A stretch of DNA of 64,000 bases from Psammoneis japonica (lineage: Eukaryota): positions 1-64,000 of the forward strand of contig QPGO01000196.1 of assembly GCA_008632985.1 (NCBI GenBank), in the 5' to 3' direction. The stretch's first letter is position 1. Each line of letters opens with the position of its first letter. The notes under the pieces were generated by a model. That model worked only from the letters and a program-made list of their open reading frames with translations. It was not told where the DNA came from and made no database searches. The translations under genes were made by a program, and so were the position numbers. Positions 1,162 through 59,758 of this stretch are shown here, piece by piece.

Positions 1162-1287
1162 TGCAGTGTGCCTCGCTACTGGACAACACGGCAAGACCGT
1201 GCATAAGCCTCTTGTACGTGGCAACATAGTATTGTTAACGCGTACCTGGGAAGCACGACCACAGGAGGGCGTGGCTCTAGGTCTTAG

Positions 1288-1959
1288 CCCCACTCGGGCA
1301 AAAAATCAAACCACTCAGTGGTTTGCAACTTGAGCAGCGTAAAACTCGCAACTGACACAATAAAGTAGTACCTACACAGATACAACCTTTTAACAGAGGC
1401 AAAAAGCCATTGTTGTCAATGCATCATGTTGTCAGCGGCCACTCGTGTGTGGAGCTCGGTCGCCGTCAAATCACCGTCATGGTCGTTGTCGGTGATTTTG
1501 TCACCCCGTAGAAACAACCGTAGGGCAGTACCAGAAAAAAATATCGAACCATTGAGCGGTTCGCTACGTAGATAAGTACCGGGAGCCCCGTAGAATTGGT
1601 GAACCATGAGGTGGTTCGGGAGGATGAGCGTAGAAATATACGTGGCAATTTGTACAAGAGGGTCGAACGCAAAATTGAACCAGAAAAATGAGGCTCACGA
1701 TGAACAAGACGGTAGCAGTACGGAGAAGTTTAAGAACACAGTAAACCACTAAAATAAAGCATGCGTGTTGTCAAACAGATGTTGCTGTATTGACTGATGT
1801 AATGTTATTGTAGATATCTCATTATCTTTTACACTTTTACCCATCGTCTGTCGGTTCGTTTTTGGCTTGCCGCGAACCACTTGATGGTTCGGGGCAGGAA
1901 TCGCGCGCATTCGTGATTTCGCGCGGCGAACCACTGCATGGTTCGCGCTGGGAGTGGGG
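1288..1959. mobile_element. Non-autonomous TIR element, piggyBac-like ends, 672 bp
   Basis: Interrupts the A1 LTR at gtc|ttag|gcaattc. TSD TTAG at 1284-1287 and 1960-1963; TIR CCCCACTC...GAGTGGGG. Five copies of a palindromic AACCAn5(T/C)GGTT motif (~1309, 1547, 1601, 1874, 1928). Confidence 0.88.
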
Positions 1960-2269
1960 TTAGGCAATTCCAGAAGGATGCTAAGAGAGCATCCGTGTGA
2001 AGCACACTAGCCCGTCGTCTGGCCCACGATGGTAGCGTGATTCCACACGATGACATCACTCGTGCATGGCGCGTGATGGCTTGATTCGCACGACCCATAA
2101 TGCGAATGCACGATCGATTTGATACGATCCAAATGCGAACGAATAGGGATTTGGCAAGATTCCCTGTTCGCACGATCCCACTTTTTCTACTCTAAACTAG
2201 CTCACAATTTTCACAACGACAAAGTCGTAACACATCTTCTTTTCAGCGCCTAGCATATACATAGGGCAC

Positions 2270-2281
2270 AGTAATATTACT
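2270..2281 (+). promoter_or_regulatory. 12-nt perfect palindrome AGTAATATTACT at the PBS position of Gypsy-A
   Basis: Starts 1 nt after the LTR end (2268), with no TGG tRNA-CCA complement. Mutated versions at 12277-12288 and 33007-33018. Function is inferred. Confidence 0.6.
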
Positions 2282-2329
2282 CCCGCATGTTGTGCGAGGT
2301 AACGAAATCTACAGAAACGAAACTACGAA

Positions 2330-3406
2330 ATGTTGGTAGGACCGACAAATCTCAAAACGACCATGAAGAAGCGGATTAAGCCGCCGATTCCGTTCGCACG
2401 GCCGGAGAAGAAAGAGCTACAGCAGGGCGAGTACCAGACGTTCAAACTATGTAACAACCCTACTGATCCGGATAGTCCAACGCACGAGATGGGCATCCCG
2501 TGCCTTTCTACGGCTACATGCGAGACACTCCTAATCTTTCTACGCAACGTGGATCGCGTGCACGAAGGACAAAACATGACGACCGGGCCAGCGAAATTTG
2601 CCCTTATGCGTGACCTACTACAGGGCGATGCTCTGACGTCATTCAATGATGCCGCTGACAAGCAGGCATCCCAAACCAATGCTGCATACGCAGCATGCAT
2701 CGCGAAGCTAAAGGAAAGTATCTTCCCACATAGGGCGGCACTATTGCAGAAGCGTTGTCTGAGGCGCTTCATGTGCAAGCCCGCAGAGGTTTCTACTCGT
2801 GACTACGTCGCGAGGGCCATTGAAATTAACGGCTATATCTCTCAGTTTCCACCCGTGACGGAGGATGGAGAAGCACCGGCACCATTGCCTAATGACGAAC
2901 TATGCGATGTGTTCGAGTACGGTGTGCCAAACGCATGGCAGAAGTTCATGACGCTACAGAATTTTGACCCGTTGGCGCATACTGTCACCGAATTTGTACA
3001 GTTCTGCGAGCGCATCGAGCAGGTCGAGCTTACCGAAGGTAACCTGGACCAACATGCTGAGGTTCCACGTAATCGGGGACGTAGAACGGACAATCCTGAG
3101 TCGTTGATCACGACCCAATGGAACACCCAGAAGTCATGTATGCTACACGGGACTAACTGTGGACATCATACGGAGGATTGCCGTCAGCTCAAGCACCACG
3201 TGAAACGTGTCAAGAATGGACATTCCAATAACGGAGGCAGCAAGCCTAATACAAAACCTCGGAATGAGGAAGACATTAATACTCTCATCGGATCGAAGGT
3301 CGAGGAGTTCTTTGCCAACGCTCAGAAAAAGCACAAGGCACGCGAGGAGGAGCTTAATCACTTCCGCGACCTCAACTTAAGTGATTCCGAAGATTCGGAC
3401 ACCTGA
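2330..3406 (+). CDS. gag: Gypsy-A Gag (A1)
   Basis: 358-aa ORF directly after the 5' LTR, with a C-terminal CxxHx4GHx4C knuckle. Near-identical to 12337-13413 and 40269-41195. Confidence 0.9.
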   Translation: MLVGPTNLKTTMKKRIKPPIPFARPEKKELQQGEYQTFKLCNNPTDPDSPTHEMGIPCLSTATCETLLIFLRNVDRVHEGQNMTTGPAKFALMRDLLQGDALTSFNDAADKQASQTNAAYAACIAKLKESIFPHRAALLQKRCLRRFMCKPAEVSTRDYVARAIEINGYISQFPPVTEDGEAPAPLPNDELCDVFEYGVPNAWQKFMTLQNFDPLAHTVTEFVQFCERIEQVELTEGNLDQHAEVPRNRGRRTDNPESLITTQWNTQKSCMLHGTNCGHHTEDCRQLKHHVKRVKNGHSNNGGSKPNTKPRNEEDINTLIGSKVEEFFANAQKKHKAREEELNHFRDLNLSDSEDSDT

Positions 3407-3516
3407 GAAGGGGGCCGACATGACACAGGTAGTTTTAATGCATTAGATGAATGTACAAATGAACAACTGAATTACCATCGTACACGTGTTGTAGGCCAAT
3501 CCCGCAAACGAGTTAA

Positions 3517-4048
3517 CGTATTCGCACAACGAGCTGATGGATGGCAAGACGATTTGACATTCTGAATTTTTTTGTACTGGAAACTTCGTGTGCGCTACAC
3601 AAGCATCGCTAAAAATCGGCGACATGACGGCGGTGCGTTGTCGTAATGATGGCGACGACATCGACGTGTCCTGGAGTCTTTGAGCATTATAGACATTTAG
3701 ATTATTAAATTTACGAACATATAAAGTCATGAAATAGACCAGGAGCAGCCTTCGTTCAATCGCAAAACGTCACACCAATGCTGAGCTCTGTTTTTTGACT
3801 GTCATTTGATGCATTCAATTATCGAACGATTATGAGCTCGTCCGGGTAGCTTTCTTTACGTATTGATGTTCTTAAGAGCATTGTTGATAACGCCATTAAG
3901 TGCACATTTTAAAGTTGTTCTGTAAGACAGTCAGAAAAATGTCATCATCATCGTCGGCGTCGACGGCAATTTGTCGCGCAAATCACAAAAAAAGCACGAC
4001 AGTCGTCTGTCCGACATTGCGCTACTGTGCGCTGGTTGTGCGAATGCC
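3517..4048. mobile_element. Non-autonomous TTAA-targeting TIR element (Kolobok- or piggyBac-type), 532 bp
   Basis: Empty site cgagTTAAaaagac is seen in A2 and A3. TSD TTAA at 3513-3516 and 4049-4052; imperfect 18-bp TIR (cgtattcgcacaacgagc vs ggcattcgcacaaccagc). Confidence 0.88.
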
Positions 4049-4222
4049 TTAAAAAGACTCATCTCACTCCAATCTTGTTTATAGCTATGAATGCTAAACA
4101 TGGCAAGGGCAAGACTCAAACCATTAAGGCACTGCTAGATAGTGGCGCCAGCAGTGCCCTACTCGACAGTCGACACTGTAAGCATCTGCGAAGCCATTCA
4201 ACGGCTGAGACAAACTGGACTA

Positions 4223-4764
4223 GGAAGTTGGTGACAAAAGTTCGAACTTTTTGGGTTCGATTTTTTTTAGGCCAAAAAATTCCCAACTCTAGATTCCAGA
4301 GCGTTTGCCCTCAATCCTCATGCACTGGTGCAATTGTTTATAGCAACTCCGGCGGTCATTCATCGAATAATGGTTGAGAAATCATTGGTTGAAAAGGGCG
4401 ATTTTTGGGGGGGTTACAAAAGTCCGAACTTTTTTCTACGTATTTTCTGTACTGCTTCTACGTGAGAGTTTTGGTTCACTCGATCGCGCGACTTCTGGCG
4501 ATTTCGACTATCACGAAATAGAACTGTTTGATGCCAGATACGACCGAGAAGACATGTCTCAGGGTCAAAAAATACGTCAAACAAACACTGACACACAGTG
4601 TGACACATAAAGCCTTAATGTAATGAACATCTGGTAGTCATAGCTACCATAATGGCAAGAACAACGGACAATCAGGGTGCCTCCACGTAGCCACCGTATT
4701 GTTTCTACGTGGAAATAAAAAGTTCGAACTTTTGTAAAAGTTCGGACTTTTGTAACCAACTTCC
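4223..4764. mobile_element. Non-autonomous TA-targeting TIR element (MITE), 542 bp
   Basis: Empty site ggacTAcggt is seen in A2 and A3. TSD TA at 4221-4222 and 4765-4766; ~29-bp TIR ggaagttggt(g/t)acaaaagt(t/c)cgaactttt. Internal repeats of the palindrome AAAAGTTCGAACTTTT. Confidence 0.9.
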
Positions 4765-5577
4765 TACGGTAGCAGGCTCGTTCAGTACGTCTAACGACTG
4801 TACCGTTAAATTTCGGTTACCAGAATTATCCGAAACTGCAGAACTTAAACATGCCGTCCACGTACACAACGGAAAGTTGGGCAAGTACGACATGATTATT
4901 GGACGTGACATTCTGGAGACACAAGGCATTGACATTGTCTTCTCTAAGCAGATGATAGAGTGGCCATTAGTCAATGGAGAAGCACCAATGAGGCACGTAG
5001 ATGCTACGGTAAAAACCTCCTTCTATCTTCAAGATCCAGAAGCCTTATCTTCGGAAACCGACCGGATTTCATGTATTTTAGACGCTAAGTACGCGCCGGC
5101 CTGCCTCGAGGACATAACACGAGAGGCAATAGGACTTTCTACAGTTCAACAAAACGACCTTTTGGCACTATTAAATGCCACGAGTCCTTATTTGATGGGA
5201 CATTAGGAGAATGGAAGGGAGAACCCTACCATGTCCAACTCAAGGAGGGTGTAGAACCATACCACGCTCGTCCGTATAAAGTACCTCGTGCGTACGAAGC
5301 TACGCTACGTAAAGAAGTAGAACGCCTAGTACGTATCGGTGTTCTCAAACACGTTAACCGATCCCAATGGGCAGCTCCATCATTTGTCACACCGAAGAAA
5401 GACTTAACGGTACGCTTTATTAATGATTTGGGAGAGCTGAATAAACGGATCAAGCGATTGCCTTATCCGATTCCTCATATCCAAGATATGCTACTTAAGC
5501 TCGAAGGCTTTATGTGGGCTACATCGCTGGATTTAAACATGGGCCACCATCATATCCGATTGGATGCTGACAGCAAG

Positions 5578-8500
5578 TGCACTATGCTCGAAGAACGAGT
5601 GTAAACGAAAGTAGAACGAAGTTCAAAAAGTGAAAATTATGAGATTAAATTTTGCTCTGTGATTTTTGGTTTCTCCGAACGAGTTCTCAATGGCCTAAAG
5701 CTTCTGTACTGCTTCTACAGACAAAAGGCCTTTCGGAGAATATATTCGTGACAACAGATTGTCCGGATACGATTGCTATTGACACGTAAGATGTCAACAT
5801 CGTCAATCGATCGTATTTGCAATTCTCAACATCCGATCAACTCTGTGTGATCGTTCTGTCCTTTGTACGCATCCACGACTGTGGTGCGATTGACATATAA
5901 ATAATAAATAATCATAAATATGTGCATGACAGTCGCATGCTGCATTCGCCTCCCTAATTGCACATTAGAGTCATTTGTTAAGTGGATTATTTGACGGACA
6001 TTGACAGTGTCAACAATGTCTCCACGTTCACTGTATTGTGCCATTGGCAATGACTGTTGTTGTTATAGGCCATCATACACAGGGCCATTTCATTTTCCAA
6101 ATGTCTTTCGAGAGCATCATGGTTTGTCTCATGTTCATTTGGACACACGGACCAATTGTCCTGCTGTTCTTTCATGGTGTCGATTGTACATAGCATCTTG
6201 CCCAGCACTCGATGTACGCACTTAATTGGCGTTCACTTACTTACTTGTGGATTTCGTGTAGTTTGGCCGGCTTACTTTATATGCCATGTTGCTCTGCTGC
6301 ACTACCACGTTTCATAAGTAATAATTAACGATGGTCAAGGATATGACCATTTCGTCTTGATGATCAATCCTGTGATGGTTGTGAATTCCATTATGGATTT
6401 TTTGTACTTCAATCATCTATCAGTTGGGTTTTAATCGTTATTTGGACGTTTCTTTTGACATACCGGTGTTATTTTGTCATTCCGAAGGCACTGCTTTCGT
6501 GCACTAAGTGGATAAATGTCCATTTTTCTTTTCTTTTTCTAGATCTTTGGCACATCTCGTGTGTCGACATGATGCACATTTTAATGTCTTGCCTCGTACA
6601 TTGTACAATACAACCGCACGGGTGTTGTGAGATTGTCTTTTGCCAGTGTAAAGTGGACACATATAATGTGCACCAATCTGTCACTGTTTTTTCCTAAATC
6701 GTCCTTTAAAAAGGCGATTTTATCCTTTATGATATGAGCATTTTTCGATCTCGCTCGCCTCCACGAAAAGTGTTCGTATGATATGTCGCGTCCGACAATT
6801 TGGAGGGAAATGTCTTTATCCCGTTTTAACGGTAGGACATTGTCGTAGGATTCAATTTTCTATAGTAAGTCGGCTGATCGCGTCTATCGCGACGATGTTC
6901 GCCTTGCCCTCGCTGTATTTTAATTCGGGACTGAAGTTTTCTATTGTAAGTCGTCAACGTATGACTTTGTCCGTTGTGTCTTATGATCCGTATATATATA
7001 AATCTGTTGGCCAAACAGTATATTTCGGAATTTTTTTAATAAGTGTTTTCACTATGGACAGAAGTTCTTTTTTCCGTTGTAACGTATAATGTTGAAATAC
7101 GTGTATGACAACAATATAGTTTTTGATTTGATACGCTCCATATTTTCGGAGACTTTTCGTTCCGTACTTGTGCTTTTGCCGTTTGACCTTTATTGAGGTG
7201 AATCTGGCTAGTATTGTACAGGAGATCGTTGAGACTACATGTCTCGACAGTAGCAACGTATAACGACGAGATGTCGTAGTGTTCTTTACGTTTTTCTCAT
7301 GTTGCGATGGCTTGAATCGCCTCCATTTTCTTTGTAATCGAATGCATGTCGTTACGTATGGAAGTCTTGATAGTTTATTTCAAGTTGAATAGTGAAGGAC
7401 TTTTGTTGTTAACCTTCTAAGCGACTGTTCTAGTCGTTTGAATGCCGCACTAAGCTGTCACTTGTACAGGTGATATTTTGAAGTCACCTTTTGTCAGGTA
7501 TAAACGATCATATACAGTCGTTCTGACTTCTGACAACTTCAAACCTGTTATGAGTTCACTCATGTGTTGTTTAAAAATGTCTGGGGCTCTATAGATTCTC
7601 ATTGGAAGTCTACAGCACTCATTTTCTCCCTACGGCATGATTTTTGTGTGAGCACGACGTGTGCTTTTTTTATTTGACATGGTGGCATTTCATATTTGAA
7701 TCAAATAGATTACATATATGAAACGTTCTTGCTTCAATGGTATTTCCTGAATATTGGGTAAAGAATGCACCACGTGTATGAACCTTTTACTAAGCTTCTG
7801 AGTGTCGGATACGGTCAAACTCGACCTGTTTTCTTTAGACAATGAGTCTCAGAGCGACTGACTCAGAGTAATTTCATTTTTAAGGCTTCAATCTTTCATA
7901 ATAGGTCAAATTCCTTTTGATTGGACGCCTCCAAAGACTATGACAGGAGAAGGTTCTCACGCGTCGTGGAATCGCGTCAGATTTTCCACGATGAGATCCA
8001 CTGGTTCTTCCCATGCATTCGTCTGAGGAACTTTTCAAAAAGATTTCAACCTCTTAAGAAGAAGATTGAGTTGGTTGTGTTCATTTGGGTTAGATGCATC
8101 GCCGTAGTTGTCACTTGATTAGGATCGATGGCGTGATAATGTGAGTCGAGGACCATTGGTTCCGTTATTAACTCTATTCACGGCGTCACATTTTTCAATG
8201 TGATCGGTTTTCAGCTTGAAAACATCGGCATCGAAGAGTGTATGAACATTCTTCATAGGGTAATTGCTTCTTCCCATTTGATTTCTTCAATTACCTAGTC
8301 TAATGTGATTACAAGACTGGACATTAAGTCGCGTCCCATGATCATGTTACTCGACCTTGAAGAAGATTTCGTGTTATCGACATATACTGTTTGAATGTCA
8401 GTGCGTCTTAAATTTGCATGGTGAGAACTGAATTCGGTTTCTACTGTCAGTCGTAAAGAGCTCACCCTTGGTTTCCCAAGTTTTTTGGTGGCGGATATTT

Positions 8501-10262
8501 TGGTTCTCAACTTTCGCACGAATTTGCGCAAAATTATGGTTGACGATGTTCCATTGTCGATAGGAACACGTAGATGCTTTTTTCTCTCCTTTCCCAAGGA
8601 AGTATTCATATAAATGATGACTCCTGGACTAGCATGAATTATTTCTGCCTTTTTTCTAGGCTTCCTAATATCCAGTAAAGCAAATAATTCGTGAATAGAC
8701 CCAAGTTGTTCTTCGGATTCACTCTGGATCATCCGATCAAATTGGCACTTTTCTTCACTGAGGGTATCAGAATCTGTTTCTTTGCCCTTATGCTCTTTTT
8801 CTTTGTTCGAGGAACTCGCTTTGAGTATTTTTTGAACCGCCTGATCAACCATGACGTTCAACTCTTTTTTGCGAGCGGCATTTTCGTTATCGCGACGCGA
8901 CCGCGTGCGATTGCCATTTGAACGGCGCATTTTTGGGTCTCTTTCAGAGTCACCCTTGCACTCTTTTGCTAGTTCATTTTCAGAATAGCTCCAATCCGTG
9001 ATGCAGGTATTCTTTTTTCAAAGATTAGACCTGGCATTCACCTTGGATTGTTCAGGTACCGTATGGGAGACCATTTTTGGAACCAAATTTGGAACCATTT
9101 TGGTTTTGGAATCAACAGCGCTATCAGAGCCTGATTTGATATGTTTTTTTGTCATAGACGTCCTCGCCGACCTCTAGACGACTCAAACCTCAATCAGCTC
9201 GTCAAGGGTATGATCCAATAATCCAAAATTTTGGACAGTAGGCTGATGCTGCCATCCTTGCGGTGCGAGTGATAGCTGACAGCTCACGGCTCGGTTTCCC
9301 GCTAGATTCAACTTAGAATCGATTGAAGGGTCGTATAGACGCTCTTCATTGACCTCTTGGGTCGAATAGGCACTCTCTTGCTGCTGAGAGCCTTGGTTTC
9401 TTCAGATCATCTCGAAAATAATAATTCCGATTCTGAAGTGCAATTCCTGGAAAGACATGAGATAAGAGACTCTTGAGGTACTTTCCAACGGTTCCTTCTT
9501 GCTCTTTGGACTGGAGGCTCGTTGATTCGGTCTCAAAAAACTCTCCAATAGTCTCTCCTTGCATGATAGACGTATTTCTCGGATCTGATCGACTCGGAAC
9601 TTGCATTCTCTGCAACCATGACTTGGTGTAGATTTTTTTGATAATGCGGTGTACTTGTAGAGTCCTTGATCCTTGGATGCTTGGAATGGACCGTGTTAGA
9701 ACGAATCTTGTCATTTGCTAGACGAAAAACAGTGTTCCATCTTGAGGCACTGCTCGGATTGAGCTTCTTCCACTCGGAAATCGATTCTAGCAGAACTGAT
9801 GCGATTCGTCCCTGTTTATAGAAGAATTTACAAAGGCACATTAGTTAAAATTTTCATTTTCCGTGCTTTTTACCTTCTGTGGTGTGTATACACAATGCAC
9901 TATGCTCCAAGAACGAGTGTAAACGAAAGTAGAACAAAGTTCAAAAAGTGAAAATTATGAGATTAAATTTTGCTCTGTGATTTTTGGTTTCTCCGAACGA
10001 GTTCTCAATGGCCTAAAGCTTCTGTACTGCTTCTACAGACAAAAGGCCTTTCGGAGAATATATTCGTGACAACAGATTGTCCGGATACGATTGCTATTGA
10101 CACGTAAGATGTCAACATCGTCAATCGATCGTATTTGCAATTCTCGACATCCGATCAACTCTGTGTGATCGTTCTGTCCTTTGTACGCATCCACGACTGT
10201 GGTACGATTGACATATAAATAATAAATAATCATAAATATGTATATAACAGTCGCATACTGCA
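5578..10262 (-). mobile_element. Gypsy-C non-autonomous copy (C1) with decayed internal region
   Basis: Two 367-bp LTRs (5578-5944, 9896-10262, TGCA...TGCA) with about 8 differences. TSD CAAG at 5574-5577 and 10263-10266. PPT gggaggcgaa on the minus strand at 5945-5954. The interior is a heavily frameshifted gag-pol (e.g. 8295-8930 spans the gag end and protease). Confidence 0.93.
9883..9894 (-). promoter_or_regulatory. 12-nt perfect palindrome TGTGTATACACA at the PBS position of Gypsy-C
   Basis: Lies 1 nt inside the 5' LTR boundary (9896). Mutated versions at 19953-19964 and 24821-24832. Function is inferred. Confidence 0.6.
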
Positions 10263-10266
10263 CAAG

Positions 10267-11843
10267 AAGCTCTGCACGCTCATCTTCCCGTGGGGCAAGT
10301 ATGAGATGCAGGCATTGCCCATGGGGTTATGTAATTCGCCAGACATTTTCCAAGAATGCATGTCAGGCTTATTTGAAGATCTATCGTTCGTTCGAACACA
10401 CTTAGATGACCTTCTCGTCGTGACGAAAGGCACCTATGAAGATCACCTCAACAAACTTGAAGAAGTCTTGTTGAGGGTCCAGAAAGCAGGACTAAAAGTT
10501 AACGCAACTAAATCTCACTTCTGTCAAACCCAATTAGAACACTTGGGTTATCTGGTCAACAGAGACGGAATACGACCAATACCTAATAAAGTCGACACCA
10601 TTAAGCGAATCGCGACCCCAACCAATAAACGCGACCTACGCTCATTTGTTGGTATGGTGAACTACTACAGTGACACGTGGATTAGACGTTCTGAAGTCTT
10701 GGCTCCGCCAACACGACTCGTAAGCGAGACTGTTAAGTGGGAGTGGACGTCCGTTGAAGACGAGGCATTCGAAACCGTTAAACGGGTGACATCGGATGAT
10801 GTTTTATTGTCACATCCTGATTTTAATAAACCCTTTGAGATACATGCCGATGCCTCTAAATATCAATTGGGAGCAGCTATATCCCAAGATAATAAACCTA
10901 TCGCCTTTTACAGCAGAAAGCTCAATAGTGCGCAATTAAATTATACAACAACGGAGAGAGAATTACTCGCCATTGTGGAGACATTGAAAGAATTTCGAAC
11001 GATTCTCCTTGGTCATCGTATAATTACACATGCTGATCATAAAAATCTTACGTACAAAGCATTCAATGCCGAGCGCGTTATGCGCTGGCGGTTAACATGC
11101 AAAGAATACGGTCCCGAACTACGCTGTGTTAAGGGCACCCATAACCTAGTCGCTGACGCTCTTAGTCGCCTTCGGCTAGCACCCAGCTTGCCTTCCGAGG
11201 CCAATCCGGATGTAAAAGACACTCCATTGAGTCGTCCTTTGCATGAAGCTTTTAATGCAGACGCGCAAGACGACGTATCTCTGCCCATTAGCTTCAAGCG
11301 CATTCAAAAAGAACAACAAAAGGACAAGCGTCTACTCTCACGAGCTAAGGACTCGTCCGACTACTCCATTCGCGCGTATTGTGGGGGAGGGTCATCACGA
11401 CAGTTAATCTGTCATAAGGACAAAATCGCAGTACCACAGTCATTGCAGATCCCGCTAACTGAATGGTGCCACGAGACACTGTGTCATCCAGGTGAGACAC
11501 GTACAGAAATATCTATTGCCCAGCACTTCTACTGGCCTAGCATGAGGTCTACGGTGCATTCTACGTGCGTTAAGTGCGATCGATGTCAGAAGACAAAACA
11601 CCGAACACAGCGTTATGGGAAGCTGCCAGAAAAGGTCGCAGAGATAATTCCATGGGAGACTCTATGCATGGATGTGATAGGGCCATATAAAATTCAAAGA
11701 CGCGGAAAGGACACTTTGCAATTATGGGCAGTCACAATGATTGACCCAGCAACCGGGTGGTTCGAGATTGAAGAAGTGTCTACGAAACGCGCAGACGTCG
11801 TAGCAAACGTCGTGGAACAAACGTGGCTATGCAGACATCCGTG
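10267..11843 (+). pseudogene. pol: Gypsy-A A1 pol, part 2 (RT, RNase H, integrase N-terminus)
   Basis: HLDDLLV (YxDD with Y->H), DASKYQLGA, ERELLAIVE, HETLCHPG...CVKCDRC. Cut at 11843 by copy A2. Confidence 0.92.
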
Positions 11844-12336
11844 TGCAGTGTGCCTCGCTACTGGACAACACGGTGAGACCGTGCATAAGCCTCTTGTACG
11901 TGGCAACGTAGTGTTGTTAACACGTACCTGGGAAGCACGACCACAGGAGGGCGTGGCTCTAGGTCTTAGGCAATTCCAGAAGGATGCTAAGAGAGCATCC
12001 GTGTGAAGCACACTAGCCCGTCGTCTGGCCCACGATGGTAGCGTGATTCCACACGATGACATCACTCGTGCATGGCGCGTGATGGCTTGATTCGCACGAT
12101 CCATAATGCGAACGCACGATCGATTTAATGCGATCCAAATGCGAACGAATAGGGATTTGGCAAGATTCCCCATTTGCACGATCCCATTTTCTCTACTCTA
12201 AACTAGCTCATAATTTTCACAACGACAAAGTCGTAACACATCTTCTTTTTCAGCGCCTAGCACATGCATAGGGCACAGTAACATTACTCCCGCATATTGT
12301 GCGAGGTAACGAAATCTACAGAAACGAAACTACGAA

Positions 12337-13413
12337 ATGTTGGTAGGACCGACGAATCTCAAAACGACCATGAAGAAGCGGATTAAGCTGCCGATTCCGT
12401 TCGCACGGCCAGAGAAGAAAGAGCTGCAGCAGGGTGAGCACCAGACGTTCAAGCTACGTAACAACCCTGCTGATCCGGATAGTCCAACGCACGAGATGGG
12501 CATCCCGCACCTTTCTACGGCTACATGCGAGACACTCCTAATCTTTCTACGCAACGTGGATCGCGTGCACGAAGGACAAAACATCACGACCGGGCCAGCG
12601 AAATTTGCCCTTATGCGTGACTTACTACAGGGCCATGCTCTGACGTCATTTAACAATGCCGCTGACAAGCAGGCGTCCCAAACCAACGCTACGTACGCAG
12701 CATGCGTCGCAAAGCTAAAAGAAAGTATCTTCCCAAACAGGGCGGTACTACTGCAGAAGCGTTATCTGCGGCGCTTCATGCGCAAGCCCGCAGAGGTTTC
12801 TACTCGTGACTACGTCGCGAGGGCTGTTGAAATTAACGGCTATATCTCTCAGTTTCCACCCGTGACGGAGGATGGAGAAACACCGGCACCATTACCTAAT
12901 GACGAACTATGCGATATGTTCGAGTACGGTGTGCCGAACGCATGGCAGAAGTTCATGACGCTACAGAATTTTGACCCGTTGGCGCATACTGTCGCCGAAT
13001 TTGTACAGTTCTGCGAGCGCATCGAGCAGGTCGAGCTTACCGAAGGTAACCAGGACCAACACACCAAGGTTCCACGTAAGCGGGGACGTAGAATGGACAA
13101 TCCTGAGTCGTTGATCACGACCCAGCGGAACACCCAGAAGTCATGTATGCTACACGGGACTAACTGTGGACATGATACGGAAGATTGCCGTCAGCTCAAG
13201 CACCACGTGAAACGTGTCAAGACTGGACATTCCAATGACGGAGGCGGCAAGCCTAATACAAAACCTCGGAATGAGGAAGACACTAATACTCTCATCGGAT
13301 CGAAGGTCGAGGAGCACTTTGCCAACGCTCAGAAAAAGCGCAAGGCCCGCAAGGAGGAGCTTAATCACTTCCGCGACCTCAACTTAAGTGATTCCGAAGA
13401 TTCGGACGCCTGA
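12337..13413 (+). CDS. gag: Gypsy-A Gag (A2)
   Basis: 358-aa ORF ending in TGA, in frame with pol. Confidence 0.9.
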   Translation: MLVGPTNLKTTMKKRIKLPIPFARPEKKELQQGEHQTFKLRNNPADPDSPTHEMGIPHLSTATCETLLIFLRNVDRVHEGQNITTGPAKFALMRDLLQGHALTSFNNAADKQASQTNATYAACVAKLKESIFPNRAVLLQKRYLRRFMRKPAEVSTRDYVARAVEINGYISQFPPVTEDGETPAPLPNDELCDMFEYGVPNAWQKFMTLQNFDPLAHTVAEFVQFCERIEQVELTEGNQDQHTKVPRKRGRRMDNPESLITTQRNTQKSCMLHGTNCGHDTEDCRQLKHHVKRVKTGHSNDGGGKPNTKPRNEEDTNTLIGSKVEEHFANAQKKRKARKEELNHFRDLNLSDSEDSDA

Positions 13414-16400
13414 GAAGGGGGCCGACACGATGCAGGTAGTTTTAATGCATTAGATGAATGTATAAATGAACAACTGAATTACCATCGTACACGTGTTGTA
13501 GGCCAATCCCGTAAACGAGTTAAAAAGACTCATCTTACTCCAATCTTGTTTGTGGCTATGAATGCTAAACATGGCAAGGGCAAGACTCAAACTGTTAAGG
13601 CACTACTAGATAGTGGCGCTAGCAGCACTCTACTCGACAGTCGATACTGTAAACGTCTGCGAAGCCATTCAACGGCTGAGACAAACTGGACTACGGTGGC
13701 AGGCTCGTTTGGTACGTCTAACGACTGTACCGTTAAATTTTGGTTACCAGAATTATCCGAAACTGCAGAACTTAAGCATGCCGTCCACGTACACAACGGA
13801 AAGTTGGGCAAGTACGATATGATTATTGGACGTGACATTCTGGAGACACAAGGCATTGACATTGTCTTCTCTAAACAGATGATAGAGTGGCCATTAGTCA
13901 ATGGAGAAGTGCCAATGAGGCACGTAGATGCTACGGTGGAAACCTCCTTCTATCTTCAAGATCCAGAAGCCTTGTCTTCAGAAACCGACCGGATTTCGCG
14001 TATTTTAGACGCTAAGTACGCGCCGGCCTGCCTCGAGGACATAACGCGAGTGGCAACAGGACTTTCTACAGTTCCATAAAACGACCTTTTGGCACTATTG
14101 AAACGCCACGAGTCCTTATTTGATGGGACATTAGGAGAATGGAAGGGAGAACCCTACCATATCCAACTCAAGGAGGGTGTAGAACCATGCCACGCTCGTC
14201 CGTATAAAGTACCTCGTGCGTACGAAGCTACGCTACGTAAGGAAGTAGAGCGCCCAGTGCGTATCGGTGTTCTCAAACGCGTTAACCGATCCCAATGGGC
14301 AGCTCCATCATTTATCATACCGAAGAAAGATTTAACGGTACGCTTTATTAACGATTTCAGAGAGCTGAATAAACGGATTAAGCGATTGCCTTATCCGATT
14401 CCTCATATCCAAGATATGCTACTTAAGCTTGAAGGCTTTATGTGGGCTACATCGCTGGATTTAAACATGGGCTATTATCACATCTGATTGGATACTGATA
14501 GCAAGAAGCTCTGCACGCTCATCTTCCCGTGGGGCAAGCATGAGATGCAGGTATTGCCCATGGGATTATGTAATTCGCCAGACATTTTCCAAGAACGCAT
14601 GTCAGGCTTATTTGAAGATCTATCGTTCGTTCGAACGTACTTAGATGACCTTCTCGTCGTGACGAAAGGCACCTATGAAGATCACCTCAACAAACTTGAA
14701 GAAGTTTTATTGAGGGTCCAGAAAGCAGGACTAAAAGTTAACGCAACTAAATCTCACTTCTGTCAAACCCAATTAGAACACTTGGGTTATTTGGCTCCGC
14801 CAACACGACTCGTAAGCGAGACTGTTAAGTGGGAGTGGACGTCCGTTGAAGACGAGGCGTTCGAAACCGTTAAATGGGTAATATCGGATGATGTTTTATT
14901 ATCACATCCTGATTTTAATAAACCCTTTGAGATACATGCCGATGCCTCTAAACATCAATTGGGAGCAGTTGCATTCCAAGATAATAAACCTATCGCCTTT
15001 TACAGCAGAAAGCTTAATAGTGCGCAATTAAATTATACAACAACGGAGAGAGAATTACTCGCCATTGTGGAGACGTTGAAAGAATTTCGAACGATTCTCC
15101 TTGGTCATCGTATAATCATATGTGCTGATCATAAAAATCTTACGTACAAAGCACTCAATACCGAGCGCGTTATGCGCTGGCGGTTAACATGCGAAGAATA
15201 CGGTCCCGAATTACGCTATGTTAAGGGTACCCATAACCTAGTCGCTGACGCTCTTAGTCACCTTCGACTAGCACCCAGCTTGCCTTCCGAGGCCAATCCG
15301 GATGTAAAAGACACTCCATCGAGTCGTCCTTTGCATGAAGCCTTTAATGCAGACGCTCAAGATGAGCTATCTCTGCCTGTTAGCTTCAAGCGCATTCAAA
15401 AAGCACAACAAAAGGACAAGCGCCTACTCTCAAGAGCTAAGGACTCGTCCGACTACTCCATTCGCGCGTGTCGTGGGGGAGGGTCATCACGACAGTTAAT
15501 CTGTCATAAGGACAAAATCGTAGTACCACAGTCATTGCAGGTTCCGCTAACTGAATGGCACCACGAGACACTGTGTCATCCAGGTGAGACACGTACGGAA
15601 ATATCTATTGCCCAGCACTTCTATTGGCCTAGTATGAGGTCTACGGTGCATTCTACGTGCGTTAAGTGCGATCGATGCCAGAAGACAAAACGCCGAACGC
15701 AGCGTTATGGGAAGCTACCAGAAAAGGTCGCAGAGATAATTCCATGGGAAACTCCATGCATAGATGTGACAGGGCCATATAAAATTCAAAGACGCGGAAA
15801 GGACACCTTGCAATTGTGGGCAGTCACAATGATTGACCCAGCAACCGGGTGGTTCGAGATTAAAGAAGTGTCTATGAAACGCGCAGACGTCGTAGCAAAC
15901 GTCGTGGAACAAACATGGCCATGCAGACATCCGTGGCCAACCCAGGTGGTTTATGACCGTGGGACAGAATTTATGGCAGAATTTAGCCAGATGATTAAAA
16001 ATGACTATGGGATTTTGAAGAAACCCATAAGTAAACGGAATCCACAGGCAAATGCCATAGTGGAACGTGTGCACCAGACACTTGGTAACATGGTACGTTC
16101 CTTTTCAGTACAGGATATGGAACTGGACGAAGATGACCCATGGAGTGGCATCCTCTCCGCAGTAGCCTTCGCTATTAGAGCTACGGCACACACGACCACG
16201 CGTGCAAGTCCCATGCAATTGGTCTTCGGACGCGATGCGGTTTTATCTATTGCCCATCGTGCTAAGTGGAAGTACATAGAAACCAGAAAGCAGAAGCTCA
16301 TCCACTTAAACAACAAGCGTGAAAATCAGAAACGCAAGGAGCATCAATATACCGTAGGGCAGTTGGTGCTTATCAAACAGGAACAATCCTCTAAATACGG

Positions 16401-16596
16401 TTCTGACAGCTATGCAGGACCCGCCAGAGTTGTCCGTGTATATGACAACGGCACGTTGCGTATCCAGAACGGAGCGCTGATAGATGCGTATAATCTACGG
16501 CAGATTGTACCCTATCACCAGCAAGACATTCTGTCACTTAACGGCCCTGATCATGGGGGAGTGTGCAGTATGCCTCGCTACTGGACAACACGGTGA
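13414..16596 (+). pseudogene. pol: Gypsy-A A2 pol (PR-RT-RH-IN)
   Basis: Same frame as gag. Nonsense stops at 14077-14079 and 14485-14487; in-frame 147-bp (49-aa) deletion at ~14790 relative to A1 and A3. Motifs LLDSGAS, YLDD, YDRGTEF, NAIVERVHQ. Confidence 0.93.
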
Positions 16597-16999
16597 GACC
16601 GTGCATAAGCCTCTTGTACGTGGCAACGTAGTATTGTTAACACGTACCTGGGAAGCACGACCACAGGAGGGCGTGGCTCTAGGTCTTAGGCAATTCCAGA
16701 AGGATGCTAAGAGAGCATCCGTGTGAAGCACACTAGCCCGTCGTCTGGCCCACGATGGTAGCGTGATTCCACACAATGACATCACTCGTGCATGGCGCGT
16801 GATGGCTTGATTCGCACGATCCATAATGCGAACGCACGATCGATTTAATACGATCCAAATGCGAACGAATAGGGATTTGGCAAGATTCCCTATTCGCACG
16901 ATCCCATTTTCTCTACTCTAAACTAGCTCATAATTTTCACAACGACAAAGTCGTAACACATCTTCTTTTTCAGCGCCTAGTACATACATAGGGCACGTG

Positions 17000-18021
17000 G
17001 CCAACCCAGGTGGTTTATGACCGTGGGACAGAATTTATGGCAGAATTTAGCCAGATGATTAAAAATGACTGTGGGATTTTGAAGAAACCCACAAGTAAGC
17101 GGAATCCACAGGCGAATGCCACAGTGGAACGTGTGCACCAGACACTTGGTAACATGGTACGTTCCTTTTCAGTACAGGATATGGAACTGGACGAAGATGA
17201 CCCATGGAGTGGCATCCTCTCCGCAGTAGCCTTCGCTATTAGAGCTACGGCACATACGACCACGCGTGCAAGTCCCATGCAATTGGTCTTCGGACGCGAT
17301 GCGGTTTTATCCATTGCCCATCGTGCTAAGTGGAAGTACATAGAAACCAGAAAACAGAAGCTTATCCACTTAAATAACAAGCATGAAAATCAGAAACGCA
17401 AGGAGTGCCAATGTGCCGTAGGGCAATTGGCACTTATCAAACAGGAACAATCCTCTAAATACGGTTCTGACAGCTGTGCAGGACCCGCCAGAGTTGTCCG
17501 TGTATATGACAACGGCACGTTGCGTATCCAGAACGGAGCGCTGATAGACACATGCAGACGCGTTCCAGCCCTAGGTGGGACTCCGTGTGACATTGGGCCC
17601 GTAGAATTCTACGTGCGAGCTCCGTAGTACGAGAATTTAATTAATGGATATATTTATCTTCAACATCAAATAAACGGCCAAGTTTGTGGTACAATTATGC
17701 CTCTCACCACTCGACGTTTTTGCAAATGCACCTGCCCTACGCGATTCTTAAGACATTGTAGAATCGCGCTGTAACAAAAAATGTCAAAAGTTGTTGGACG
17801 GATCGCTCAATAAGTGTACCGTAAAATGACACAAAATATCAAAAAAATCACGTAGAAATCTACGTGCGCGACATACGACGTGATTCAAAAAACTATCGAT
17901 GTCACAGTTCAGTAGCACGAGGTCCCACCTAGACCTGGAACGCGTCTACAATCTACGGCAGATTGTACCCTATCACCAGCAAGACATCCTGTCACTTAAC
18001 GGCCCTGATCATGGGGGAGTG
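17000..18021 (+). pseudogene. pol: Gypsy-A A1 pol, part 3 (integrase core and C-terminus), split by a TIR element
   Basis: YDRGTEF...NATVERVHQ...AGPARVV; continues the sequence cut at 11843. Confidence 0.9.
17557..17946. mobile_element. Non-autonomous TIR element with inferred TATA TSD, 390 bp
   Basis: 31-bp imperfect TIR starting gacgcgttccag..ctaggtgggac. The empty site in A3 is cacgTATAatc; flanks here read TGCA (17553-17556) and TACA (17947-17950). Confidence 0.85.
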
Positions 18022-18474
18022 TGCAGCATGCCTCGCTGCTGGACAACACGGCGAGACCGTGCATAAGCCTCTTGTACGTGGCAACGTAGTGTTGTTAACG
18101 CGTACCTGGGAAGCATGACCACAGGAGGGCGTGGCTCTAGGTCTTAGGCAATTCCAGAAGGATGCTAAGAGAGCATCCGTGTGAAGCACACTAGCCCGTC
18201 GTCTGGCCCACGATGGTAGCGTGATTCCACACGATGACATCACTCGTGCACAGCGCGTGATGGCTTGATTCGCACGACCCATAATGCGAACGCACGATCG
18301 ATTTGATACGATCCAAATGCGAATGAACAGGGATTTGGCAAGATTCCCTATTCGCACGATCCCACTTTTTCTACTCTAAACTAGCTCATAATTTTCACAA
18401 TGACAAAGTCGTAACACATCTTCTTTTCAGCGCCTAGCACATACATAGGGCACACTACCATGTCGGCCGACTCC

Positions 18475-19561: not shown

Positions 19562-22500
19562 TGCAACACATGCTGTGATGTACATTTTGTGTGTGTGTGG
19601 TGTGTACACACATGCTTAAATGTTATTTTATGTTCAATCGTACGTCAATCGTGGGTTCGTATGAAGGACAGATCAGTCACACAGAATTGATCGGATGTCG
19701 GAAATCGCAAAACCGATCGCTTGACGATGTTGACATCTTGTGTGTCAATGGCAATCGTATCCAGACAATCTGTTGTCTCACGAATACATTCTCCGAAAGG
19801 CCTTTGGTCTGTAGGAGCAGTACAGAAGCTTTAGGCCATTGAGAACTCGTTCGGAGAATCCCAAAATGATTGAGTAAAATCTAATCTCATAATTTTCACT
19901 TTTTGTACTTTATTCTACTTTCGTTTGTGCTCGTTCTTCGAGCATAGTGCATTGTGCACACACACCACAGAAGGTAAAAGAAACAAAAATGAAGCTTTTG
20001 CCCCATGTTGCCAACTCCAAGTCTTTCTTAAGGCAGGAGAAAATTGTTCCTCAACCGTTGGATTTGATCTCCGAGCCAAACACGCTCAAACCGAGCCAAT
20101 GCCTCAAGATGGAGCAGTGCACTGTGCTCGAAGAACTGGCATAAACGAAAGTAGAATCAAGTATGAAAAGTGAAAATTATGAGAATTATTTCTATCCAAT
20201 CATTTTGGATTTCTCCGAACAAGTTCTCAATGGCCTAAAGCGTTTGTGCTGTTTCTACAGACAAGAGGCCTTACGGAGAATAAGATCGTGACAACAGATT
20301 GTCCGGATACGATTGACATTGACACACAAGATGTCAACATCATCGTATGATCGTATTTGCCATTTTCGACATCCGATCAATTCTGTGTGATTGATCTGTC
20401 CTTCGTACGAACCCACGATTGACGTACAAATTTATTTAATATCTTTATATATACATATATAATGTACATAACAACGCATGTTGCGTTCGCCTCCCTAATT
20501 GCACATTAGAGTCAGTCGTTAAACGGCATAATTCGACGAATTTAGACAGTGTCAAGAACGTCACCGCGTTTGATCTGTACTGTGCTGTTAGCATGTACCG
20601 TTGTTATTACATACGGTCCAACATAGGGCTGTTCTAGTTTCTGCGAGTCTTTCTCGAGCAGTGTCTTTTCTCCTGTGCTGCACGTGTGAGGAGTACGTTG
20701 AGCATTCTCTCGAGTGTTGTTTTTATTTATAATTTTGTGTTTTCGCTGCTGGATGAATTTCCAGTCTGCAACATGTTGGACGTTAAATATCATGTCTCTG
20801 TTAAAGACTAATTGTCCAGGTGTGTGGCTTGCGTAGTAGCATGACACGTAGAACGTACTGCAAATGCCACTGCTGATAATATTCCAGCGAAGGGATCCTC
20901 AGTATCCAGAGGTGCATGTTGCAAATCAAGTGTGTGGATCATGTTTCCCAGTGCTTGATGTGCGCGTTCAATAATTGCGTTTGCTTGTGGATTTCGTGTA
21001 GTTATGGGCTTGACTTTAATGCCATAATCATCTTGCACCATGTTCTTAAATTGGTGTCCGATGAACTCACTTCCACGATCATAAGTGATTGACGATGGCC
21101 AAGGATGTCTACTTAACCATGTCCGTTCTAACAGTCCAGCTATGGTTGTGGATTCCTTGTTTGGAATTTCCACAACTTCAAACCATCCGGTTGCTGGATC
21201 AATCCAGGACCAGGGGTTTCTTCTTTCCCTTACGACGTATTTTGTATGGTCCAATAAGATCCATGCACAGTTGTTCCCATGGCACTGATTCTGCGCACTT
21301 AGGAGGTAAATGTCCGTATTTCTTGTGTTTCTTTTTGAATTTTTGGCACGTCTCACATCTCGACACGTATTTTCGTATGTCTTCACGTAAGGTAGACCAC
21401 CATGAGTGTTGTGAGATTGTTTCTTCTGTTCGATTTATGCCAGGGTGAAGAAGGTGCGTATGATGCCAATCTATCACTGCCTTTTGTAACGTCTTTGGAA
21501 AGACGATTTTATCCTTATGACATGTGAGCAACCGGTCTCGCTCACCTCCACGAAAAGTCTTCGTATGAAATGTCTTGTTAGACAATTTGGAGAGAATGTC
21601 TTTATCCCGTTTTTGTTCAGTGTCAAGAACTTTGTAGTTTAACGGAAAGACATTGTCGTTGGATTTTGGTGGGACCTTCTCAGCTAACTCTTCTGTGCTG
21701 AGGTTTTCCATAGGTTCTTTTTTTTTCACAGTAAGTCGGCTGATCGCATCTGCGACAACATTTGCCTTGCCCTCGAGGTACATTATTTCGGGACTGTATT
21801 CTTCTGTTGTTAGACGCCAACGCATGACTCTGTCCGTTGTGAAATTTTTGTGTGTGAGATTTTTGTGGTCCATACATATATTTATCTGTTGGCCAAACAG
21901 CACATTTCGGAACTCTTTTAACATCTCCACTGTGGACAACAGTTCTTTTTCCATTGTAGTGTAACGCATCTGAGCTCCATTCAGCTTGCGGCTGTAGAAG
22001 GCAATTGGTTGGTTGTTCTGTGTGATAACCGCCCCCAATTGAGAATTACTCGCATCAGCATGTATCTCAAAGGGCACATTAAAATTCGGGTATGACAATA
22101 GTGTGTCTTTAGAGATGATGCGCTTCATATTTTCGAAGGCTTTTTGTTCTGTTTCGGTCCATTGCCACTTTACTCGGTCTGAAGTAAGTTTGGCTAAAGG
22201 AGCTAGAACATGAGATCGTCAAGGCCACATGTCTCGATAGCAGTTGATCATGCCGATGAATCGTTGCAATTCCTTACGAGTTTTAGGAGCTGCGATCGCG
22301 TGAATCGCTTCTACCTTCTTTGGAATGGGACTGATGCCATTGCGGGTGATATGAAAGCCTAGATAGTCTACTTCGGGTTTAGCAAAAAAGGACTTTTCGG
22401 CATTGACCTTCAATCCGGCTTGTTCAAGGCGTAAAAACACCGTCTCAAGCTTCTTGAGGTGGTCTTGAAAATCACCTTTTGTTGGGCACAGTGTGTCGTC

Positions 22501-32573: not shown

Positions 32574-33066
32574 TGCAGCATGCCTCACTACTGGACAACA
32601 CGGCGAGACCGTGCATAAGCCTCTTGTACGTGGCAACGTAGTGTTGTTAACACGTACCTGGGAAGCACGACCACAGGAGAGCGTGGCTCTAGGTCTTAGG
32701 CAATTCCAGAAGGATGCTAAGAGAGCATCCGTGTGAAGCACACTAGCCCGTCGTCTGGCCCACGATGGTAGCGTGATTCCACACGATGACATCACTCGTG
32801 CATGGCGCGTGATGGCTTGATTCGCACGATCCATAATGCGAACGCACGATCGATTTAATACGATCCAAATGCGAACGAATAGGGATTTGGCAAGATTCCC
32901 TATTCGCACGATCCCATTTTCTCTACTCTAAACTAGCTCATAATTTTCACAACGACAAAGTCGTAACACATCTTCTTTTTCAGCGCCTAGCACATACATA
33001 GGGCACAGCAATGTTACTCCCGCATATTGTGCGAGGTAACGAAATCTACAGAAACGAAACTACGAA

Positions 33067-33303
33067 ATGTTGGTAGGACCGACAAATCTTAAAACGACCA
33101 TGAAGAAGCGGATTAAGCCGCCGATTCCGTTCGCACGGCCGGAGAAGAAAGAGCTACAGCAGGGCGAGTACCAGACGTTCAAGCTACGTAACAACCCCAC
33201 TGATCCGGATAGTCCAACGCATGAGATGGGCATTCCGTACCTTTCTACGGCTACATGCGAGACACTCCTAATCTTTCTACGCAACGTGGATCGCGTGCAC
33301 GAA
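33067..33303 (+). pseudogene. gag: Gypsy-A A3 gag N-terminus
   Basis: First 79 codons of gag, cut by the copia LTR at 33304. Confidence 0.9.
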
Positions 33304-33579
33304 TGACAGGATTTGAACAGGATTTAGGTGCGCACGAAATGTCGCGCGCTGTTTAGTTTACCGTGCACAGTTTTGTGTGCTTTAGTTCCGCGCGTTCGCG
33401 CACGATGTAGTTTGCTTTTGAGCCACAAGGCTCACAAGAATAACAACAGTGGCCCGATTATACCGACTTACATGTCTTTCGGCTCCTGCAACGGTCTCTG
33501 AGCGGAGACTCATCTGCTATTTAGACAGCAGTAAGGAGTTGTTGTTTGAATTCTTGCCATTTGCCTTCAATTTCTGTCA

Positions 33580-33596
33580 GATTAACAGTCTTGCTC
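33580..33596 (+). promoter_or_regulatory. Putative copia PBS complementary to the tRNA-Asn(GUU) anticodon arm
   Basis: gattaacagtcttgc directly follows the LTR; its reverse complement is gcaaga-CTGTTAA-tc. The same sequence is at 52927-52943. Confidence 0.6.
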
Positions 33597-33641
33597 ATTG
33601 TCAACCCATTGAGCAACCGCCATCGTCGTCGTTGATTTACC

Positions 33642-33967
33642 NNNNNNNNNNNNNNNNNNNNNNNNNNNNNNNNNNNNNNNNNNNNNNNNNNNNNNNNNNN
33701 NNNNNNNNNNNNNNNNNNNNNNNNNNNNNNNNNNNNNNNNNNNNNNNNNNNNNNNNNNNNNNNNNNNNNNNNNNNNNNNNNNNNNNNNNNNNNNNNNNNN
33801 NNNNNNNNNNNNNNNNNNNNNNNNNNNNNNNNNNNNNNNNNNNNNNNNNNNNNNNNNNNNNNNNNNNNNNNNNNNNNNNNNNNNNNNNNNNNNNNNNNNN
33901 NNNNNNNNNNNNNNNNNNNNNNNNNNNNNNNNNNNNNNNNNNNNNNNNNNNNNNNNNNNNNNNNNNN
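33642..33967. other. Assembly gap (N run) in the copia 5' UTR
   Basis: Run of n. The corresponding sequence is present in copy 2 (~52990-53315). Confidence 0.99.
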
Positions 33968-40151: not shown

Positions 40152-40164
40152 TTTACCGAGCACA

Positions 40165-59753: not shown

Positions 59754-59758
59754 GATGA

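Follow-up and report, generated by a model that had tools for sequence, protein, structure and literature searches.

The primer of minus-strand DNA synthesis in an LTR retrotransposon needs complementarity to the site that adjoins U5. This raises the question of which RNA serves as the primer in gypsy elements whose 5' LTR is followed by a perfect 12-nt palindrome, as is the case at the first LTR border of the window, i.e. the whole 64,000-nt stretch of DNA analysed here. The accepted classes of primer-binding site (PBS), as given in the accessible text of a survey of LTR elements, are the tRNA 3' end, half a tRNA, and self-priming by the transcript's own 5' end (PMC6317226). The initial annotation had reported palindromes instead of a tRNA PBS in two gypsy families, Gypsy-A and Gypsy-C, and had regarded them as a candidate new priming mechanism.

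Self-comparison revealed that the window is a nest of LTR retrotransposons. It contains three full elements of the Gypsy-A family, which has LTRs of 432 nt (TGCAG...ATAGGGCA); all three lie on the forward strand. The outer Gypsy-A element occupies 1162-18452 and has the target site duplication (TSD) CACT. Its 5' LTR is separated by an insertion at 1288-1959 into the first 126 nt (1162-1287) and the 3' part (1960-2268), the latter ending with ...ATAGGGCA, and Gypsy-C1 is also nested in this element. A tandem LTR-int-LTR-int-LTR array at 1162-18452 was considered and rejected, since one Gypsy-A copy is inserted in the integrase region of the other with the TSD CGTG. This inner Gypsy-A element (11844-16995; TSD at 11840-11843 and 16996-16999) has its 5' LTR at 11844-12275, its 3' LTR at 16564-16995 and the polypurine tract (PPT) CATGGGGGAGTG at 16552-16563, directly before the 3' LTR. 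The third Gypsy-A element is located at 32574-44926 (TSD AGAT), with its 5' LTR at 32574-33005. Gypsy-C1 (5578-10262, reverse strand; TSD CTTG at 5574-5577 and 10263-10266) has 367-nt LTRs (TGCAG...ATAGTGCA). Its 5' LTR, ending with ...ATAGTGCA, is at 9896-10262, its 3' LTR at 5578-5944 and its PPT AGGGAGGCGAA at 5945-5955, all on the reverse strand. Gypsy-C2 (20118-25211, reverse strand; 5' LTR at 24834-25211) and Gypsy-C3, a truncated copy on the forward strand whose LTR end is at 19951, are older and more diverged than Gypsy-C1. The four 4-bp TSDs (CACT, CGTG, AGAT and CTTG) define the LTR ends, which read TGCAG...GCA in the window, and the PPT reads GGGGGAG. Pfam domains of the Gypsy-A ORFs are arranged in the gypsy-type order of RVP/Asp_protease, RVT_1, RT_RNaseH, Integrase_H2C2 and rve; RNase H and integrase domains were detected in Gypsy-C2.

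After each 5' LTR in the window comes one pyrimidine and then the palindrome site. The 3' LTRs are bordered by TSDs and not by a palindrome; thus, the LTR ends one base before the palindrome. The C residues that follow the LTRs ending at 16995 and 18452 were considered as retained spacers, but they belong to the TSDs CGTG and CACT. In the outer Gypsy-A element the LTR ends at 2268, the spacer is C at 2269 and the perfect palindrome AGTAATATTACT occupies 2270-2281 of the forward strand. In Gypsy-C1 the spacer is T at 9895 and the perfect palindrome TGTGTATACACA runs from 9894 to 9883 on the reverse strand. The sequences and coordinates that the initial annotation had given for these two palindromes, 1 nt past the 5' LTR, were reproduced, and so was the lack of TGG, which is absent from the first 20 nt past the Gypsy-A and Gypsy-C LTRs; within 0-5 nt past the terminal CA, none of the six window copies has TGG. 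The inner Gypsy-A site, AGTAACATTACT (12277-12288, forward strand; spacer C at 12276), has a single C/A mismatch at its centre, and the site of the third Gypsy-A element, AGCAATGTTACT (33007-33018, forward strand; spacer C at 33006), is decayed. Gypsy-C2 (24832-24821, reverse strand; spacer T at 24833) and Gypsy-C3 (19953-19964, forward strand; spacer T at 19952) share the sequence TGTGCACACACA, which is no 12-nt palindrome and is self-complementary in 8 nt only, TGTGCACA. Both are old copies, although they may represent a shorter functional form of the palindrome. The differences between copies had been described as changes from TA to TG/CA. All of them are indeed TA versus CA/TG, but the reverse direction, that is CpG decay, is as likely, and relatives hold both AGTAACGTTACT and AGTAATATTACT as perfect palindromes.

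The window as a whole has no general excess of perfect 12-nt palindromes: there are 15, while 15.6 are expected and shuffled sequences have 14.6 +/- 3.8. The chance of a perfect 12-mer palindrome at one fixed position is 1/4096, and two of the 15 are located at the position 1 nt past an LTR. Another palindrome near the Gypsy-C3 LTR (19600-19611) was judged to be a chance match, as it is aligned within the TG/CA-rich part of U3. For the palindromes at the LTR borders, chance is removed as an explanation by the following comparative data.

With the Gypsy-A polyprotein as query, 241 longer relatives were found, of which 120 were listed. Among those listed, the best matches are metagenome proteins with 50-55% identity, and the relatives with an organism name are from the diatom Fistulifera solaris and an MMETSP transcriptome (40-41% identity). 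The relatives have the same Pfam domains as Gypsy-A; no chromodomain family is present among the Pfam matches of the window ORFs or the domains of the 120 relatives listed. Using an alignment of 30 relatives, we fetched a first set of 78 metagenome-contig loci. A second set, fetched later as a test, consisted of 6 IMG/VR contigs and 28 contigs binned in bacterial metagenome-assembled genomes (MAGs). Of the 78 loci in the first set, 59 have a junction palindrome, and the remaining 19 are contigs that start within the polyprotein (first matched residue at least 79) and do not include the leader. In the second set, 16 of the 34 contigs contain the junction, all 16 with the palindrome, and pol or gag fragments without a leader make up the other 18. 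Taken together, the 112 contigs contain 75 junctions, and all 75 have a perfect palindrome 0-1 nt past the terminal CA; because junctions were recognised by the palindrome and its CA context, the statement that there are no exceptions depends on the tblastn coordinates of the loci without a match. The palindrome is a 12-mer at offset 1 in 68 junctions, a 12-mer at offset 0 in five and a 10-mer in two, one of these being L054. TGG is present within 0-5 nt of CA in none of the 75 junction loci. Even the most distant elements (L081, L082, L083 and L084; 35-39% identity) have the junction palindrome. The presence of palindromes in the two gypsy families of the window, as stated in the initial annotation, is therefore true of both, but it is part of a wider, clade-wide trait.

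The position of the palindrome relative to the LTR could be seen in the relatives as well. Many contigs of the first set are about 5.0-5.9 kb long with terminal k-mer overlaps and are LTR-collapsed, circularly permuted assemblies of whole elements, and several others contain real LTR pairs. In L025, L029, L051 and L061 the spacer and the palindrome follow the 5' LTR copy, and unrelated flank follows the 3' copy; the contig of L007 ends with its 3' LTR copy. The first-set loci contain 163 perfect 12-nt palindromes in 389,714 nt versus about 95 expected. This excess is about the number of junction sites, and it sits after a conserved U5 end, (A/G)TAG(T/G)GCA. The PPT and the LTR start are conventional and conserved, with the pattern CATGGGGG(A/C)GA(G/A)|TGCA(A/G)TATGC, and the border of the PPT in relatives reads CATGGGGGAGAG|TGCA. 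A second palindrome at the PPT was considered, but it occurs in a few loci only (L005, L018) and is not conserved.

What is conserved at this site is self-complementarity, and the sequence varies. An alignment of 59 junctions, consisting of 53 distinct ones from the first set and the six window copies, was used for covariation. Across the six mirror pairs, 94.4% of the cells are paired, compared with 59.1 +/- 2.1% in shuffles, and pairing goes down to 35-55% when the register is slid by 1-3 columns. There are 122 compensatory cells versus 38 +/- 8 in shuffles, and none of 500 shuffles reached 122. Changes on both sides were found in all six pairs. Because kinship can inflate such counts, the sites were mapped onto a tree of the RT/RNase H region (101 rows), which was made with a quick method and has SH-aLRT support only. 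On this tree the perfect offset-1 12-mer is present in 66 rows as 23 distinct palindromes, with at least 30 changes of state. The minimum numbers of changes for the six pairs are 8, 9, 2, 11, 12 and 12 (at least 54), each a double-sided change from one Watson-Crick pair to another, and the palindrome switches even between the sister taxa L003/L004, L024/L064 and L051/L052. The proposal that related families be compared for palindromy kept under changing sequence is thus answered in the affirmative. Not all positions are equally free: pair 3-10 is T-A nearly throughout and pair 1-12 is T-A or A-T only. The mean GC content of the palindromes is 18% (44% for whole loci), and 14 of the 68 lack any G or C. 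The spacer is a pyrimidine in 68 of 68 (T in 40, C in 28), and the base next to the 3' side of the palindrome is C in 45 of 68.

Which RNA can pair with such a site? No complement of at least 7 nt to the palindrome was found in the window LTRs, except for (TG)n matches in Gypsy-C2 and Gypsy-C3. Within 120 nt on either side, the best match was 0-7 nt long, and random windows drawn from these loci gave matches that were distributed alike; whole loci gave scattered 8-9-mers only, with no consistent partner of at least 8 nt. The element's own 5' end, raised in the initial annotation as a possible partner that would speak against a new mechanism, therefore gave no complement at any of these scales. 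Scans of the window for tRNAs and Rfam families found nothing, and no polyadenylated contigs able to show transcript ends were found. The lack of another partner in the LTR and the leader rules out the arrangement of Tf1 as well as the second box of the fungal GalEa elements, which are considered below. The Tf1 PBS is 11 nt long and RNase H makes its cut in an RNA duplex; the palindromic site is about as short. In the accessible portions of two articles, the PBS of Tf1/sushi elements is described as pairing with the first bases of the same transcript (PMC5445492, PMC6317226), and a number of gypsy and copia lineages have been predicted to be self-priming (PMC6317226). On the reading favoured below, Tf1/sushi elements resemble the present ones in being tRNA-independent, in having a short PBS that adjoins the 5' LTR, and in a primer that is derived from the element's own RNA and needs a cut in an RNA:RNA duplex. 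However, their PBS is not palindromic and finds its partner in the same transcript, whereas here nothing but another copy of the site offers a partner, and pairing is expected to be between two RNAs. Tf1/sushi elements (chromoviruses) have a chromodomain at the integrase C-terminus, and none was seen among the Pfam matches of the window ORFs or the domains of the listed relatives. Folding of the transcript's 5' end back onto the site would also leave the palindromy without a reason, and we regard such priming as very improbable. For a tRNA (3' end, half or internal part) or another host RNA, the general rule speaks in favour, because tRNA priming is the norm for LTR elements, and the sites share with tRNA and half-tRNA PBSs the place 0-1 nt past the U5 end, together with the same PPT, LTR ends and TSD, as far as these are described in the accessible text (PMC6317226). 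The sites differ from a tRNA PBS in having no TGG and no fixed sequence and in being self-complementary. A fixed host RNA cannot account for compensatory changes on both halves of a site, and together with TGG in 0 of 75 loci this argues on logical grounds against a host tRNA: the sequence has changed at least 30 times on the tree, always symmetrically, and, reasoning from tRNA structure, a perfect 12-nt palindrome has no fit in a cloverleaf arm. A host-encoded primer is scarcely credible for these elements.

The remaining explanations concern what the self-complementarity is for, and folding predictions bear on them. The isolated 12-mers have a predicted monomer fold of 0 to -2.1 kcal/mol, and dimers of the perfect palindromes are predicted at -6 to -20 kcal/mol, the all-AU palindromes giving weak duplexes (-6 to -7 kcal/mol). 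Predicted homodimers of 64 distinct 82-nt leader segments contain all 12 pairs in 49 cases and none in 13. Because the centre of such a palindrome would stay unpaired if it folded on itself, the covariation of the central pairs fits a duplex of two RNAs and not a hairpin. The snap-back alternative, in which the RNA would be cut 3' of the palindrome, fold on itself and copy its own U5-R from the 3' end in cis, has the correct orientation, and hairpin self-priming has been discussed as an old mode for LTR elements (PMC3601003, accessible text). Here, however, a hairpin would consist of at most a 4-bp stem with a 4-nt loop, within the weak monomer energies above, and the two central pairs, which are unable to form in it, switch 12 times each with compensation. 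We therefore consider snap-back priming quite unlikely, and somewhat less likely than the possibility that the palindrome is only a signal for dimer initiation or packaging, like the retroviral dimer-initiation site (DIS), with something else providing the primer. The retroviral DIS is a short palindrome in a hairpin loop, additional to and separate from the tRNA PBS. Like the present site, it is a self-complementary leader sequence that pairs two genomic RNAs, and such joining of genomes is established in retroviruses according to the accessible part of PMC5445492. A loop around the palindrome could be closed by a weak candidate 3-bp stem (GUG/CAC or GG/CC; columns 5-7 with 24-26), which is 75% paired and has UA in 28 rows and GC in 14 at its pair 6-25. 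The stem is only 3 bp long, though, and its covariation tracks two large clades. A hairpin just 3' of the palindrome is predicted often, with neither sequence nor position conserved. A DIS coexists with a tRNA PBS and sits in a loop further downstream, whereas the present palindrome occupies the PBS place itself: the LTR ends 1 nt before it, minus-strand synthesis has to start there, and no other primer site is present (TGG in 0 of 75). A role in dimerisation without priming is therefore unlikely, although it is the first of the alternatives in probability. A function at the DNA level, as a symmetric protein-binding site or a cruciform next to the 5' LTR, would be in keeping with the AT-rich sites and with the palindromes typical for dimeric DNA-binding proteins. 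However, 23 sequences with strictly mirrored changes would require as many protein specificities; mirrored change is a signature of base pairing, and the fixed place at the U5 border suits the reverse-transcription cycle. This explanation is improbable, more so than snap-back priming.

We therefore favour, with slightly more confidence than doubt, the reading that the palindrome is the PBS, that it joins two genomic RNAs by base pairing, and that cleavage at its 3' border yields the minus-strand primer. Annealing of two genomic RNAs and cleavage 3' of the palindrome had been suggested in the initial annotation, next to a mere dimer-initiation signal. It appears a little better than evenly probable, too, that the clade concerned comprises diatom-type Ty3/gypsy retrotransposons that do not use tRNA. 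The LTR border places the start of minus-strand DNA at the spacer, so that the 3' end of the primer sits on the palindrome. The site has no complement but itself, so a second genomic RNA most likely provides the primer as a sense copy of this site; a host RNA cannot track at least 30 symmetric changes, and no sequence but the site's own matches in every case. A match to its own sense copy requires a site to be palindromic, and palindromy is the very feature that is conserved. We infer the dimer, the cut and the priming from the position, length and self-complementarity of the site, the lack of another partner, and the conventional PPT and LTR ends.

The following cycle may be proposed. A 12-bp PBS:PBS duplex would join two co-packaged RNAs. 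One of them would then be cut where the duplex ends on its 3' side, by the RNase H of the element or some other nuclease, as in Tf1; cleavage of an RNA:RNA duplex by the element's RNase H is assumed here by analogy. At the duplex boundary there is always a pyrimidine spacer, and only 3 of the 68 offset-1 palindromes extend beyond 12 bp (to 14). The new 3' OH would be extended on the partner RNA, across its spacer pyrimidine and on through U5 and R, and the RNA upstream of the palindrome would be degraded once it is in an RNA/DNA hybrid, leaving a primer of about 12 nt. Plus-strand strong-stop DNA would copy this primer of about 12 nt, and the PBS would thereby be remade. Because a cut 3' of the PBS destroys that RNA as a full-length template, two RNAs per particle would be needed. 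Weighing against the scheme are this requirement, the weak duplexes of the very AU-rich palindromes, the 13 leader segments whose predicted homodimer does not contain the 12 pairs, and the two Gypsy-C copies in the window that are no 12-nt palindromes. Copying of the primer by the plus strand would be antiparallel, and any change in one half-site would thereby yield a heteroduplex with the mirror change. Single changes would thus readily become new perfect palindromes, which fits the high and symmetric turnover. It is possible, though we would put it at somewhat below an even chance, that dimerisation and the initiation of reverse transcription are one event in these elements, i.e. a bimolecular and host-independent priming in which mutations are mirrored between the site halves, explaining the fast symmetric turnover. 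To our knowledge, bimolecular host-independent priming has not been described for any retroelement.

A precedent for the site itself exists, so its description as a new-mechanism candidate has to be qualified. Donnart et al. (2017) reported a "conserved hairpin site" in fungal GalEa elements of the Ty1/copia type, with a palindrome right after the 5' LTR (PMC5445492). According to the accessible part of this paper, U5 contained no complement, and none of the known models was found to be suitable. The GalEa palindrome is 9 bp long (10 with the last A of the LTR) and nearly fixed, two forms being found in 85% of families, and 12-41 bp downstream there is an inverse-complementary second box, which forms a hairpin with a conserved A/A mismatch (PMC5445492). 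As far as can be judged from that part of the paper, the GalEa elements and the elements described here have in common the lack of a tRNA-type PBS and a palindrome at the PBS place directly past the 5' LTR. They differ in that the former are copia elements, in which integrase precedes RT, with a 9-bp, nearly fixed palindrome and a downstream second box, and the latter are gypsy elements with a 12-nt palindrome that varies freely with compensation and has no second box within 120 nt above the control level. The signal in the present clade, with gypsy elements in diatom-type hosts rather than fungi, is cleaner: the 12-nt palindrome stands alone, lacks a second box and has switched dozens of times with compensation. 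In the open-access literature, no description was found of a palindromic or self-complementary PBS, nor of diatom LTR elements with a PBS/PPT bearing one. The main text of Maumus 2009, where diatom gypsy groups were named, has no discussion of the PBS for GyDi; its supplementary structural table may bear on priority.

The palindrome case may be placed with non-tRNA (self) priming, with a real chance that it forms a separate mode, and the evidence from sequence comparison points to a fourth priming mode in which the second genome copy would act as the primer. The GalEa palindrome has been unexplained since 2017, judging from the accessible text (PMC5445492), and a second, unrelated lineage makes the question directly testable. 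If the proposal is true, these elements would replicate independently of host tRNAs and their priming would be coupled to the co-packaging of two RNAs. It would also bear on the idea of self-priming as ancestral in LTR elements, which is put forward in the accessible text of PMC3601003. Where annotation tools for LTR elements depend on a PBS of the tRNA type, members of this abundant clade will be overlooked or wrongly scored.

Several further observations were made on the LTRs and leaders. The LTR ends carry a 10-nt inverted repeat, TGCA(A/G)TATGC ... GCATAGTGCA, which is present clade-wide despite protein identities of 35-60% (e.g. 68-77 and 482-491 in L025) and presumably represents the integrase recognition ends. 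In most loci, such as L007, L012, L035, L081 and L084, a conserved initiator-like motif, (G)CTCA(C/T)AATT, precedes the LTR end by about 50-75 nt. Its window counterparts are at 12195-12210 in the Gypsy-A LTR and at 9960-9975 (reverse strand) in the Gypsy-C1 LTR. Among 69 distinct upstream segments, ACAATT is present in 38 and ATAATT in 29. The motif has no complementarity to the palindrome. If it is the transcript start, R and U5 together would be only about 60 nt. Within 60 nt downstream of the palindrome, a 5' splice-site-like sequence, GT(A/G)AGT, was found in 12 of 72 distinct leaders, compared with 1.7% of random 60-nt windows; the loci include L013, L016, L025, L028, L030, L037, L039, L049 and L063, among others. 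This sequence may be a leader splice donor. The counterparts in the window are weaker (GGTAA), namely GAGGTAAC at 2297-2302 and AAGGTAAA at 9868-9873 on the reverse strand.

Diatom-type gypsy sequences in the second set (L079-L112) are filed as IMG/VR viral genomes or in MAGs labelled as cyanobacteria, Bacteroidota, Proteobacteria, Actinomycetes and others; their placement in viral and bacterial sets is due to contamination or mis-binning. Many of the 5.0-5.9 kb contigs appear circular, their terminal overlaps being the assembly k-mer (55-127 nt).

The window also contains a Ty1/copia family (33296-40164 and 52652-59756) with RVT_2, a 1828-aa ORF at 34665-40151 and LTRs of about 280 nt. Its 5' LTR is followed (at about 52930) by ...CAGATTAACAGTCTTGC, which has neither TGG nor a palindrome and may be a half-tRNA-type PBS. 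As for copy number, contigs of three DNA runs from one sample were compared with the window; 7421 contigs of run X1 map to 1800-10400, and both gypsy families are thus very high-copy in that sample. The contigs differ from the window copy mostly by transitions; among the differences listed, A>G (214 cases) and T>C (201) are commoner than G>A (83) and C>T (103). This excess is in keeping with C-to-T decay in the copies of the window and with the CG/TG/CA/TA variants seen in the middle of the Gypsy-A site.
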